Assembly: GCA_023898465.1 (NCBI GenBank)
Contig: CP060223.1
Location: forward strand, 1 to 64,000
DNA length: 64,000 nt
Direction of reading: 5' to 3'
From: Candidatus Nomurabacteria bacterium
Lineage (GTDB): Bacteria > Patescibacteriota > Patescibacteriia > HK-STAS-PATE-3
Part shown: in pieces, positions 33,387 through 34,359 of the stretch
Numbering within the stretch: the stretch's first letter is position 1
How the letters are laid out: each line of letters opens with the position of its first letter
Position numbers and translations under genes: made by a program
The notes under the pieces: generated by a model
The model's database searches: none
The model's input: only the letters and a program-made list of their open reading frames with translations
What the model was told of the DNA's origin: nothing

Positions 33387-33932
33387 GAACTCACAAAAAG
33401 AATATATCTTCCCGAGGCAGTTTATTTTGTTACTACAGTAACAAAATTCCGTGAACCTTTCTTTTTAGATAACTCCCTTGCTCGATTATTTATTGAGCAG
33501 TTATATATTGCGAAGAAGCTAAAAGAATTCAAATTATACGCTTATGTAATAATGCCAGATCATGTACATATTTTGATTGAGCCAGGAGTACGCTATTCAA
33601 TTTCAAAAAGTATGTTTACGATAAAGAAGCAATTCGCACATGAGGCTAACCGTATGCTGGGTTGGAATGACAAGAGAATAATAAATTTCTCCTCCGCAGG
33701 CGAACAAACGTTTGTTCGCCTGCGGGAGTTTGTAAATTTACATCATCCTAGCTATGGGCAGAAATTTCATTGGCAAAAATCCTTCCATGATCACGTCATC
33801 CGTGACCAAAGGGATTTCAATCACCACGTGAATTATCTACACCTCAACCCGGTGAAAGATGGATTGGTGAAGAAACCCGAAGACTGGCCTTATTCATGCT
33901 ATGACGCTTTTTTGAAAGGCGATTTACTTTGA
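33387..33932 (+). pseudogene. IS200/RAYT-type (Y1 HuH) transposase, N-terminal start lost
   Basis: Translation ...KRIYLPEAVYFVTTVT...FKLYAYVIMPDHVHILIEP...NYLHLNPVKDGLV matches the family. The in-frame stop TAG at 33384-33386 precedes the conserved N-terminus with no start codon. An out-of-frame ATG at 33344 (MAMWRSKR stop) suggests a frameshifted start. Confidence 0.65.
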
Positions 33933-33953
33933 TTGATGCCATTCCTCAATAAG

Positions 33954-33985
33954 CACAAAAACATCCTTACCTGGTGAGCGCAGAG
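33954..33985. repeat. 32-bp direct repeat copy 1 (tRNA-Lys 3-prime end plus flank) within pseudo-tRNA debris
   Basis: acaaaaacatccttacctggtgagcgcagagg is identical to 34267-34298. The region 33986-34150 also contains a second tRNA-Lys fragment (cccccaacccgttgcttaag at 34122-34141). Confidence 0.7.
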
Positions 33986-34266
33986 GCCTGCCCGCCGACT
34001 GGCGGGGACTCGAGTCCGGGGTCAAGTGATTCCTCATAAATTCGGAATAACACTTGACCCGTCTCCGCAGTGCGTGACTGCAGCAGTGCAGTCACTTTCG
34101 TCTATCGACGAAACTGCTCTGACCCCCCAACCCGTTGCTTAAGGTTTGAGCGGCATCCTGAGGAATCTCAGGATAGCAAGCAAACTGTTTTGCTTGCGGC
34201 CGCGAAAACGGGCAAGGGTTGCGAACAGAGTGAGCCTCCTTGCCCAGTTAGCAACTGTGTTACGGA

Positions 34267-34298
34267 AACAAAAACATCCTTACCTGGTGAGCGCAGAG
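34267..34298. repeat. 32-bp direct repeat copy 2 (overlaps 3-prime end of intact tRNA-Lys)
   Basis: Exact match to 33954-33985. Confidence 0.7.
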
Positions 34299-34359
34299 GG
34301 ACTCGAACCCCCAACCCGTTGCTTAAGAGGCAACTGCTCTACCATTGAGCTATGCGCCC
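34285..34359 (-). tRNA. tRNA-Lys (anticodon CTT)
   Basis: Reverse complement GGGCGCA TA GCTCAATGGTAGAGC A GTTGC CTCTTAA GCAAC ... GGGGGTTCGAGTCCCTC TGCGCTC A CCA. Confidence 0.8.

Follow-up and report, generated by a model that had tools for sequence, protein, structure and literature searches.

What DNA lies between the tRNA-Lys(CTT) gene and a transposase-like gene in the genome of an uncultured Patescibacteria (CPR) bacterium, and how did it come to be there? The window, the 64-kb stretch that we analysed, holds in this interval an exact repeat and several tRNA-like pieces. A preliminary description had read them as the residue of repeated integration and excision, or of tandem duplication, at a tRNA-Lys hotspot. 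The locus is best explained as two separate non-functional relics, a 313-bp unit and a RAYT gene, flanked by tRNA-Lys on one side and by a ~340-nt candidate RNA beside cmk on the other. The tRNA-Lys(CTT) gene itself is intact (34285-34359, minus strand; ARAGORN and Rfam) and has the same sequence in two related lineages, L022 and L023. Upstream in the same cluster lies tRNA-Arg(TCG) (34442-34518, minus strand; ARAGORN and Rfam), and the Rfam scores of the two genes are 71.4 (Lys) and 73.8 bits (Arg). The tRNA-Lys leader (34360-34376, minus strand) is complementary over 17 nt to the trailer at 34271-34287, and hence also to the distal repeat copy described below; the leader/trailer pairing is perfect in L022 and includes one U.G pair in the window. 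Among the seven tRNA genes of the window, extra fragments are seen for tRNA-Lys only. At the other end of the locus, an unannotated, conserved and structured RNA candidate of ~340 nt (32945-33292, plus strand) adjoins cmk immediately upstream of the RAYT region. A 94-aa minus-strand ORF at 33027-33311, a gene in Logan, was rejected as non-coding, its amino acid identity being 38% where the DNA is 76% identical.

The 313-bp unit is bounded by two copies of a 32-bp direct repeat that are identical (32/32) and spaced 313 bp apart, leaving a 281-bp interior. The preliminary description had already seen this repeat, and its coordinates need to be moved by a single position: the distal copy occupies 33955-33986 and the proximal copy 34268-34299, both on the minus strand. 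It was also right that the repeat joins the tRNA 3′ end to flanking sequence, with 15 nt of tRNA (CCTCTGCGCTCACCA) and a trailer of 17 nt in place of the 18 nt it had given. The proximal copy is the 3′ end of the functional tRNA-Lys with its trailer and U-run; the distal copy contains the T-stem 3′ strand, the acceptor 3′ strand, ACCA and the 17-nt trailer. No other exact non-coding repeat of at least 20 nt occurs within the 64 kb.

The distal copy is the third block of a longer displaced fragment. Block 1 (34121-34143, minus strand) matches 34305-34327 at 22 of 23 positions (BLAST E=3e-4) and spans anticodon base C34 to the T-stem 5′ strand, its start being exactly the first anticodon base (34327 in the gene, 34143 in the copy). 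Block 2 (34005-34013, minus strand), the T-loop/T-stem sequence TCGAGTCCC, matches 34298-34306 at all nine positions. The second tRNA-Lys fragment and the T-arm copy reported earlier are therefore both present, the latter as a perfect 9/9 match even though it had been called degraded. The three blocks (34143-34121, 34013-34005 and 33986-33955) are colinear on the same strand and cover tRNA positions 34327-34268 at 59 of 60 nt. Together they make up a single copy of the 3′ portion of the tRNA, which runs from the first anticodon base into the trailer and is split by two insertions, so repeated integration and excision are not needed to account for them. The insertions are 18 nt (33987-34004; hairpin CCCGCC-GACT-GGCGGG) and 107 nt (34014-34120) long, the second being rich in hairpins (~34019-34060, 34074-34095 and 34096-34113). 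The remaining 124 nt, from the intact tRNA trailer to the displaced fragment (34144-34267), are non-coding and contain hairpins at 34155-34174, 34176-34197 and 34212-34247; the tRNA-proximal ~38 nt of this remainder (34230-34267, CAGTTGCTAACTGGGCAAGGA) is common to L023. The two tandem junctions of the unit read TTTTTGT/TTCCGTAAC and GGGCAGG/CCTCTGCG, and GCTTATTGAGG is the sequence that the tRNA trailer would directly join in an empty-site allele. Reading the pseudo-copy as a tRNA-like, tmRNA-like or intron-containing tRNA was rejected, since ARAGORN and Rfam return nothing for it and it has no 5′ acceptor strand.

The interior differs from its surroundings in composition and in structure. 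Its GC content is 55.5%, against 48% for the window and similar to that of the tRNA genes, and only short ORFs occur in the 313-bp unit. The fold z-score of the 281 bp is -6.2 to -7.0, close to -7 whichever strand is folded. Four perfect hairpins have stems of at least 7 bp where 0.18 are expected, and the hairpin density is the highest of any 281-bp segment of the 64 kb. Without the three blocks, the interior shares 7- and 8-mers with the adjacent tRNA-Lys/tRNA-Arg unit at the level of shuffled sequence and has no other match in the window. The suggested tandem duplication does not fit this result. The hairpins all differ in sequence, with no second copy in the 64 kb or in the loci fetched from relatives. 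A REP/BIME cluster would repeat a single palindrome family in alternating orientation, usually with a GTAG or CGTC tag; we rejected this reading because no palindrome recurs in the 64 kb and the sequences differ. Rfam 15 covariance models run over 33955-34284 on both strands gave only noise at E<=10, tRNAs alone exceeding gathering thresholds, and the insert had no BLAST match in phage or plasmid collections. Scans of IMG/VR yielded nothing for the repeat, for CAGTTGCTAACTGGGCAAGG or the 34074-34095 hairpin (the two insert motifs used), for the RAYT palindrome or for a RAYT profile. Four metagenome contigs matched a 20-mer from the repeat; we took these as chance, as none of the loci has a tRNA gene, and the two that were inspected are GC-rich, protein-coding-looking sequence. 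According to gene and Pfam tables, mobile-element genes, integrases included, are absent from the unit and from ~5 kb to either side, where the neighbours are housekeeping genes.

Comparison with relatives, which the preliminary description had proposed, provided a junction without the insert. The closest relative found, L022 (about 95% nucleotide identity), matches the window in two segments, 34620-34270 (95%) and 33986-33771 (96%), that are separated by a single repeat copy, so that tRNA-Lys, the repeat and the RAYT 3′ end are directly joined. Because L022 carries this exact empty site, the 313 bp is a clean presence/absence polymorphism. L023 has a different remnant in the same interval, keeping only the first ~38 nt of the insert, and in L024, which belongs to a more distant genus, two unrelated ORFs occupy it. 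These three arrangements bear out the earlier view of the tRNA-Lys 3′ side as a recombination or integration hotspot. The presence of the proximal end of the insert in L023 means either that the insert is older than the three lineages and was lost in L022 or that related elements integrated twice. L024 also repeats a ~115-nt structured module directly after two different tRNAs, without sequence similarity to the window insert. When contigs were searched by way of YmdB, the best relative had only 55% amino acid identity, and in the nine loci examined for tRNA genes the tRNA-Arg/tRNA-Lys arrangement is never found beside YmdB.

With somewhat more confidence than doubt, we read the 313-bp unit as the leftover of DNA that recombined into tRNA-Lys(CTT), and the RAYT gene as a separate, older resident that is now a young pseudogene. 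A complete tRNA gene, a downstream 3′ fragment in the same orientation and a boundary in the anticodon loop are the signature of tRNA-gene islands (PMC4383910). A tyrosine integrase would have crossed over in the anticodon loop, with the incoming element restoring the tRNA gene and displacing the original 3′ part. The resulting order would be the functional tRNA, 124 nt of non-coding DNA, and the displaced 3′ part extending to 17 nt past the CCA. The island, any integrase included, would later have been deleted. The displaced fragment would then have been split by the 107-nt and 18-nt hairpin-rich insertions, its last 32 nt remaining as the uninterrupted repeat. Recombination or slippage between the repeats, or an earlier excision, would remove the unit exactly and give the empty-site allele of L022. 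Two observations fit this scheme less well. A displaced copy that retains 59 of 60 positions yet has received two insertions implies that the event is young or that the copies have undergone gene conversion, and passive decay does not predict the excess of structure (z about -7; 4 hairpins versus 0.18).

One competitor dispenses with an integrase. Slippage, template switching or unequal exchange might have duplicated the tRNA-Lys 3′ part and its trailer with filler or palindromic DNA between the copies, and L022 either never had the unit or lost it by repeat-mediated deletion. The duplicated block includes 17 nt of non-tRNA trailer, whereas attP copies carried by an element need not extend past the tRNA; this part of the identity counts against the integrase scheme and is explained equally well by local duplication. 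No integrase lies nearby, the hairpins are strand-symmetric Watson-Crick palindromes like the products of template switching, and a swapped palindromic patch in the RAYT ORF (below) suggests that a palindrome-generating process is active in this lineage. We nonetheless consider a local rearrangement rather unlikely. The interior has no detectable local source, given k-mer sharing at the shuffled level and no match elsewhere in the window, and a tandem 313-bp duplication would give two similar units, which are not seen. The start of the duplication also coincides exactly with the first anticodon base, a crossover subsite that integrases are known to use (PMC4383910).

The RAYT gene lies outside the repeat-bounded unit, 22 nt from it at the main-ORF stop, and is convergent to tRNA-Lys in three lineages; for these reasons we treat it as an older resident and not as part of the tRNA scar. 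Its main ORF (33399-33932, plus strand; RIYLPEAVYF...KGDLL, stop TGA at 33930-33932) contains the HuH motif PDHVHIL and the catalytic-Tyr region NYLHLNPVK. The raw ORF matches Pfam Y1_Tnp (E=6e-11). After frame correction it scores 134.1 bits against NCBIfam NF047646 REP_Tyr_transpos (cut-off 80) and falls below the IS200 family NF033573 (28.3 bits, cut-off 55). Residues H143, H154 and Y157 are invariant in the homolog alignment (A3). The gene is single copy in the window.

Two lesions interrupt this gene. RAYT homologs begin MHRNSQKR(I/Y)YI, and the window encodes the corresponding segment, (M/V)IAIFHRNSQK with the family motif HRNSQK, at 33367-33399 (plus strand) in a frame other than that of the main ORF. 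An A5 run at 33395-33399 is one A short of placing HRNSQK-RIYLPEAVYF in a single frame. The homolog of a further lineage, L026, lacks an A-run and encodes this N-terminus in one frame, and all seven listed homologs (P0002-P0008) are single-frame. The second lesion, a 1-nt deletion (GATTATAC to GATTTAC; 33924-33952, plus strand), creates a premature TGA, and the conserved C-terminus TLIDAIPQ with its stop is still readable in another frame at 33926-33952. The corresponding ends are GDYTLIDAIPK in L022 and NENYLLIDSFPFD in L023, each followed by a stop codon. This deletion is seen against both relatives and is not a change in homopolymer length. The earlier impression of a decaying gene is thus upheld by two independent 1-nt deletions, the N-terminal one defined against the family and the C-terminal one against L022 and L023, whose contigs, reached via cmk homologs, end before the RAYT 5′ end or differ in context. 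Because the A-run deletion splits off the N-terminus and the second deletion cuts the conserved C-terminus, we regard RAYT as a young pseudogene. Since the split from L022 it has gathered four non-synonymous and two synonymous substitutions, which look relaxed, and the L022 gene itself carries Arg in place of Trp in the conserved WPY motif.

The preliminary description placed an in-frame TAG upstream of the N-terminus, which is present at 33384-33386, and a displaced ATG at 33344 in another frame, which opens merely an 8-codon ORF. Its statement that no usable start exists does not hold, as GTG 33367 and the conserved N-terminus are found in a different frame; the first canonical start of the main frame is ATG 33552. 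A terminator (33268-33283) and then a terminator-like hairpin with a T-run (33352-33377, plus strand; GTGGCGATC...GATCGCTAT) precede the gene. The hairpin holds the SD-like AAGGTGATC as well as GTG 33367 and may hide the RAYT start site. The REP-like flanks suggested earlier did not materialise within the window, to which this check was confined: no REP-like or other repeated palindrome family accompanies RAYT in the 64 kb, the flanking hairpins are unique, and the upstream hairpin has no matching right-end hairpin.

Whether the broken gene is still expressed is a separate matter. NCBI annotates a 176-aa protein here (P0001), the first residue of which corresponds to ATA 33402; exact look-ups returned no record for either P0001 or the ORF from ATG 33552. 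Some residual expression is conceivable because 176 codons of the gene body remain open and are annotated as an intact protein, and the N-terminal motif and GTG start are preserved in a -1-related frame. Translation might use a -1 frameshift or transcriptional slippage on CAAAAAG (33394-33400), or the non-canonical ATA start of P0001. In other systems, such as dnaX- and IS3-type sites, A-runs with a G after them are slippery. The locus does not fit a programmed -1 site, which is defined by an X XXY YYZ heptamer, a nearby stimulator and conservation among homologs: the run is just A5G within CAAAAAG, a distance of 24 nt separates it from the nearest downstream hairpin, and the homologs P0002-P0008 are single-frame, as is L026 with its same N-terminus and no A-run. 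The second, independent frameshift would still remove the conserved C-terminus. Expression by any of these routes seems doubtful to us, and RAYT is probably silent in this genome. For annotation, RAYT should be flagged as frameshifted rather than started at ATA, and the pseudo-tRNA pieces should be recorded as one displaced fragment.

The RAYT frame contains the longest perfect palindrome of the window, 32 bp at 33694-33725 (halves CCGCAGGCGAACAAAC and GTTTGTTCGCCTGCGG), which encodes AGEQTFVRLR in a variable loop. Four lineages have a perfect palindrome in this loop, and its core sequence comes in three versions. That of L023 is identical to the one in the window, and L026 carries a 91%-identical version with compensatory changes in the outer stem, despite a protein identity of only 44%. 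L022 and L032 have different perfect palindromes at the same position. The patch has been swapped between near-identical lineages whose RAYT flanks are identical or nearly so. In L026, a second, imperfect copy of the core lies ~70 bp upstream of the start codon, where a GTA precedes it and, together with the core's first G, spells GTAG. One could propose that this RAYT subfamily keeps a perfect 28-32-bp REP-like palindrome in its own frame and that the lineage actively inserts and exchanges hairpin DNA on short time scales, citing the two hairpin insertions in a tRNA fragment that is 59/60 identical and the swapped palindrome cassette. The palindrome would then be the single-strand DNA substrate of the enzyme or an autoregulatory site, and the hairpin-rich tRNA-Lys insert would be a product of RAYT activity instead of passive decay. 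We hold this proposal to be distinctly unlikely.

A related idea makes the unit itself mobile. The 281-bp segment, or its two insertions, could be a non-autonomous hairpin module mobilised in trans as single-stranded DNA by a Y1/HuH enzyme such as the adjacent RAYT, with a preference for tRNA trailers. The segment lies 22 nt from the main-ORF stop codon of RAYT, is the most hairpin-dense of its length and folds equally well on both strands; the displaced fragment has gained two hairpin insertions while still 59/60 identical, L024 places its ~115-nt structured module directly after two different tRNAs, and RAYT genes of this subfamily themselves carry palindromes. Against this, the hairpins all differ and have no second copy in the 64 kb, the fetched loci or IMG/VR (scanned with two motifs), the L024 modules are not similar in sequence, and the local RAYT is frameshifted. 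Y1 transposition, moreover, does not generate 32-bp direct repeats. Such a module is, in our judgement, quite improbable.

Still less probable is a functional structured RNA, either a 3′ external transcribed spacer or a small RNA, co-transcribed with tRNA-Arg and tRNA-Lys and ending at the terminator in the second trailer copy. The fold z-score of -6.2 to -7.0, the tRNA-like GC content, the orientation shared with the tRNA operon and the trailer and U-run after the segment would all suit such an RNA. Against it, the opposite strand folds equally well, and the segment is missing from L022 and mostly missing from L023. No Rfam family is found even at E<=10, and the tRNA-like 3′ end is without an acceptor-stem partner.

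Over 33150-33723, the A5 run included, the window is 100% identical to the Logan assembly of SRR12358676, whose sample may be the one that yielded the window. The Logan contigs end exactly at the 32-bp repeat and at the perfect palindrome 33694-33725, as expected of k=31 graphs if both features are real. An assembly artefact, in which a wrong path through the repeat node joined two strain variants and sequencing errors produced the frameshifts, would accord with a metagenome-assembled source, with the natural occurrence of both insert-bearing (W-type) and empty-site alleles and with contigs that break at the repeat as a strain mix would make them do, but it is the least likely of the explanations, because a cycle through the repeat requires reads for both novel junctions and the insert-to-repeat joints must therefore exist in real DNA, the A5 run is the same in the output of a second assembler, the C-terminal deletion is not a homopolymer-length change and L023 independently has the proximal junction.

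The preferred reading, DNA recombined into tRNA-Lys beside an older RAYT pseudogene, leaves a small and well-resolved tRNA-gene scar with its empty site next to a domesticated transposase that was inactivated recently, both in a reduced CPR genome, and it matters little. The scar and RAYT are mostly ordinary genome wear, with the kept palindrome as the curious detail. Palindromes that are maintained as palindromes in RAYT frames could bear on substrate recognition or regulation and, like the conserved ~340-nt RNA candidate at 32945-33292, are a by-product possibly worth more than the scar.

Among known systems, the unit most resembles the tRNA-island scars catalogued by Islander. Of the Islander criteria (PMC4383910), the window has a tRNA gene with a downstream 3′ fragment on the same strand (59/60 nt) and a recognised subsite, block 1 starting at the first anticodon base and the 32-bp repeat in the T-stem 3′ strand; it has neither an integrase nor a length of at least 2 kb. 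The shared plan is a full tRNA gene, a same-orientation copy running from the anticodon loop through the 3′ end and an empty site in a relative, whereas the window unit is 313 bp long without an integrase or any gene, its identity runs 17 nt past the tRNA, and its fragment is broken by two hairpin-rich insertions. A further parallel is found in CIMEs, the cis-mobilisable elements of the Streptococcus thermophilus ICESt literature, which are att-flanked DNA without recombination genes. Like these, the window unit would be non-coding DNA between att-derived direct repeats (32/32) that can be lost exactly, as at the L022 empty site; unlike them, it has no cognate integrative element or integrase known for its genome. 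For the transposase, the HuH and Tyr motifs, the score above the NF047646 cut-off, the single copy and the chromosomal housekeeping neighbourhood are those of a RAYT, although the window gene is frameshifted twice and has a palindrome inside its ORF in place of a flanking REP/REPIN pair or a dispersed REP family in the 64 kb. The 5′ end of IS200 is regulated by an upstream terminator and a start-site hairpin, and the window gene shares with IS200/IS605 TnpA both the Y1 HuH fold family and this order of a terminator (33268-33283) followed by a hairpin (33352-33377); it differs in scoring under the IS200 cut-off and in having no recognisable LE/RE pair and no second copy in the window. Rickettsia palindromic elements are an example of in-frame palindromic insertions in coding genes. 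They and the RAYT palindrome have in common a perfect palindrome tolerated in frame in a variable protein loop, but the window palindrome is bound to one gene family and one position, it stays palindromic while its core is exchanged between lineages, and it is not dispersed through the 64 kb.

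On the forward strand of this Patescibacteria (CPR) genome, pnp and then cmk (cmk at 32259-32831) precede a non-coding stretch of about 500 bp; next come the Y1/HuH gene (+; main ORF 33399-33932), a hairpin-rich interval and, all on the minus strand, tRNA-Lys(CTT), tRNA-Arg(TCG), HU, YmdB and RNase Y. The preliminary description interpreted the locus as a decaying mobile-element scar comprising a pseudogene of a REP-associated tyrosine transposase (RAYT), a direct repeat and several tRNA pieces. The features that it listed are all found in the window, some displaced by one base, and the observation is confirmed as a fresh instance of already known kinds. 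The interpretation is partly supported: the locus would hold one integration-type scar, with an empty site in a relative, and a twice-frameshifted RAYT that decayed independently of it.

The exact 32-bp repeat lies at 33955-33986 and 34268-34299, with a spacing of 313 bp, and is the sole exact non-coding repeat of at least 20 nt in the window. Within the unit that it bounds, the second tRNA-Lys fragment is a 23-nt block (34121-34143; 22/23 identical to tRNA positions 34305-34327) and the T-arm copy is a 9-nt T-loop block (34005-34013) matching 34298-34306. No extra fragments were found for the remaining six tRNA genes of the window. Read on the tRNA strand, the displaced blocks (34143-34121, 34013-34005 and 33986-33955) are colinear with tRNA positions 34327-34268 and together match 59 of those 60 nt, a span that starts at the first anticodon base and ends 17 nt past CCA. 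This colinearity indicates that what had been described as separate pieces is one displaced tRNA-Lys 3' part, later interrupted; the blocks are parted by segments of 107 and 18 nt, both rich in hairpins, and 124 nt of non-coding DNA separate the functional tRNA's trailer from the displaced fragment. The Logan assembly of SRR12358676, a second assembler's output from a sample possibly identical to the window's, matches the window with 100% identity over 33150-33723. Its contigs break off precisely where the 32-bp repeat and a perfect 32-bp palindrome of the RAYT ORF lie, as expected of a k=31 graph at true repeats. The tRNA-Lys leader (34360-34376) is complementary over 17 nt to the trailer (34271-34287), prolonging the acceptor stem, with a U-run after the trailer. 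In the closest relative the complementarity is perfect; in the window it includes a U.G pair. The helix probably serves in processing or as a terminator, and the distal repeat copy (33958-33974) is able to pair identically with the leader across 385 nt.

Nearest relatives were located through HU homologs, and every syntenic one is a Patescibacteria MAG. In the closest (L022; HU 92% identical), which is 95% identical to window 34620-34270 and 96% to 33986-33771, the tRNA-Lys trailer joins the 3' end of a convergent RAYT directly. By alignment, this junction is the exact empty site, without the 281-bp interior and one repeat copy, that the preliminary description had proposed seeking in relatives. 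A second relative (L023; HU identity 76%) shares the tRNA-Lys gene and its trailer. Next come ~38 nt homologous to the insert end nearest the tRNA (window 34230-34267; L023 2191-2230) and, ~15 nt beyond, a convergent RAYT of its own; the locus holds no second repeat copy. Within that homologous stretch a 21-nt core, CAGTTGCTAACTGGGCAAGGA, is identical in the two lineages, with diverged flanks. Lying just past the trailer, this core mimics the tRNA-Lys anticodon arm (same GTTGC/GCAA stem, different 7-nt loop) and may represent an older fragment, or a site bound by a recombinase. Two further loci (L024 and L025; HU ~78% identical in the aligned core) keep HU, tRNA-Arg and tRNA-Lys on one side and cmk and pnp on the other, with two ORFs unrelated to the window in the interval. 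Given these differing contents, the stretch from tRNA-Lys to the RNA/cmk side is a variable slot, in which a RAYT convergent to tRNA-Lys occurs in three lineages. L024 (GCA_043802545.1) also carries a structured module of ~115 nt directly after both tRNA-Arg and tRNA-Lys (4028-4144 and 4294-4410; 80-88% identical to each other), the second copy with its internal hairpin swapped for a different one; the modules have no sequence similarity to the window insert. Recombination of the two remaining 32-bp repeats with each other, or earlier excision, may have produced the L022 allele. The proximal insert end shared by L023 allows two histories: the insert may be old and lost from L022, or related elements may have integrated independently, and three taxa are too few to choose.

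The interior of the unit departs from simple decay. There the tRNA strand folds with a z-score of -7.0 and its complement with -7.3, at equal energies; such symmetry points to Watson-Crick palindromes in the DNA and away from a strand-specific RNA. It holds four perfect hairpins (stems 7-9 bp, loops 4 nt; 0.18 expected per 281 bp), the window maximum, along with several that have longer loops. GC content is 55.5% in the interior, 48% in the window and 38% in the RAYT. No Rfam family matches the interior, the phage and plasmid collections gave no match to the insert, and a scan of IMG/VR with two insert motifs found none. Nor are these hairpins a REP family: each has its own sequence, and the window and the fetched loci contain no second copy of any. 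Tandem duplication, the other origin proposed, is rejected: outside the three blocks, words in common with the adjacent tRNA unit occur at shuffled-sequence level.

The Y1 HuH identity of the ORF holds (Pfam Y1_Tnp). Once the two frameshifts are corrected, its product reaches 134 bits with NCBIfam REP_Tyr_transpos (cut-off 80) and only 28 bits with the IS200 model, under its cut-off of 55; a near-identical version (P0001) carries the record name "MAG: transposase [Candidatus Nomurabacteria bacterium]". A TAG (33384-33386) does stand directly before the conserved N-terminal region, and the first ATG, GTG or TTG of the main frame comes only at 33552. The start, which had been described as lost, and the N-terminus are displaced instead: seven homologs (P0002-P0008) all start M(x)HRNSQKR(I/Y)YI..AVYF(I/V)TTVTK, and the window encodes HRNSQK (cat agg aac tca caa aaa, 33382-33399) in another frame, opened by GTG 33367. 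The originally described frame encodes RIYLPEAVYFVTTVTK from 33399 onward. The two frames meet at a C-A5-G run (33394-33400), where one extra A would give an uninterrupted HRNSQKRIYLP. Expression through slippage on this run finds little support; a homolog in L026 has the same N-terminus in a single frame without an A-run, so the A5 site (33395-33399) is not a family-wide recoding site. A second lesion lies near the 3' end, where GATT-TACTTTGA yields GDLL* and TLIDAIPQ* is readable one frame over; L022 ends GAT TAT ACT TTG ATT GAT GCT ATT CCT AAA TAA (GDYTLIDAIPK*) and L023 ends ...NENYLLIDSFPFD*. Over the common 3' part, the window and L022 differ by four non-synonymous and two synonymous changes, and in L022 the WPY motif has Arg for its conserved Trp. 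We read the gene as recently inactivated, with selection apparently relaxed. Upstream, the TGA of an 8-codon ORF (MAMWRSKR*, 33344-33370) overlaps GTG 33367, and a hairpin (33352-33377) encloses this overlap and an SD-like AAGGTGATC. This arrangement resembles the start-site hairpin of IS200.

The RAYT ORF contains the window's longest perfect palindrome (33694-33725; 16-bp arms without a loop), which encodes AGEQTFVRLR in a protein loop of variable length across the family. Perfect palindromes with three different cores occupy the same loop in four lineages. That of L023 (2476-2507) has the window's sequence. In L026, the protein is only 44% identical to the window RAYT, yet the palindrome (3331-3365) is 91% identical at the DNA level and its outer stem has changed in a compensatory way (CAGG/CCTG to AAGG/CCTT); a second, imperfect copy (2941-2962) sits ~70 bp upstream of the start codon, preceded by GTA, which forms GTAG with the core's first G. 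L022 (1047-1074) is identical to the window just downstream of the patch and has its own perfect palindrome, GCAGCGGAAGATGG|CCATCTTCCGCTGC, within it, so that between near-identical genes the patch has been exchanged outright. L032 (1708-1735) has a third, GAAGGCGCGGATGA|TCATCCGCGCCTTC, and AT-rich L029 has none. Two RAYT/HuH surveys make no mention of intragenic palindromes; the pattern, drawn from five lineages, is a lead, not a result. Another perfect palindrome (33424-33447; 11-bp stem, ATTTTGTTACT AC AGTAACAAAAT) encodes the family-conserved YFVTTVTKF; the VTTVT amino acids account for part of its symmetry.

Between cmk and the RAYT lies an unannotated candidate structured RNA of ~340 nt (32910-33292, +). 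It has a near-consensus promoter (TTGACA-17-TATACT with an extended-10 TG, 32910-32938), a terminator (33268-33283 plus a T-run) and a fold z of -6.6. Its counterpart beside cmk in L024/L025 shares 76% nucleotide identity over 295 nt and the promoter, and in a two-sequence alignment 9 of 85 predicted pairs are altered on both sides yet still paired. No Rfam family matches it, and an overlapping 94-aa minus-strand ORF is probably not coding, because its protein identity is only 38%.

The scar and the RAYT decay are of low to moderate interest, one more instance of known feature kinds; the palindrome behaviour of the RAYT and the neighboring RNA candidate might reward more study. The 313-bp unit contains no integrase or any other gene, and its neighbors are housekeeping genes. 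Integrase-mediated insertion leaves a full tDNA and, downstream, a same-orientation 3' fragment starting in the anticodon loop, the incoming element restoring the tRNA gene (PMC4383910). The best reading of the unit is a nearly erased integration scar: it resembles tDNA-integrated islands (PMC4383910) in having a full tDNA and then a same-orientation 3' fragment that starts in the anticodon loop, but differs from them in falling far under island size.
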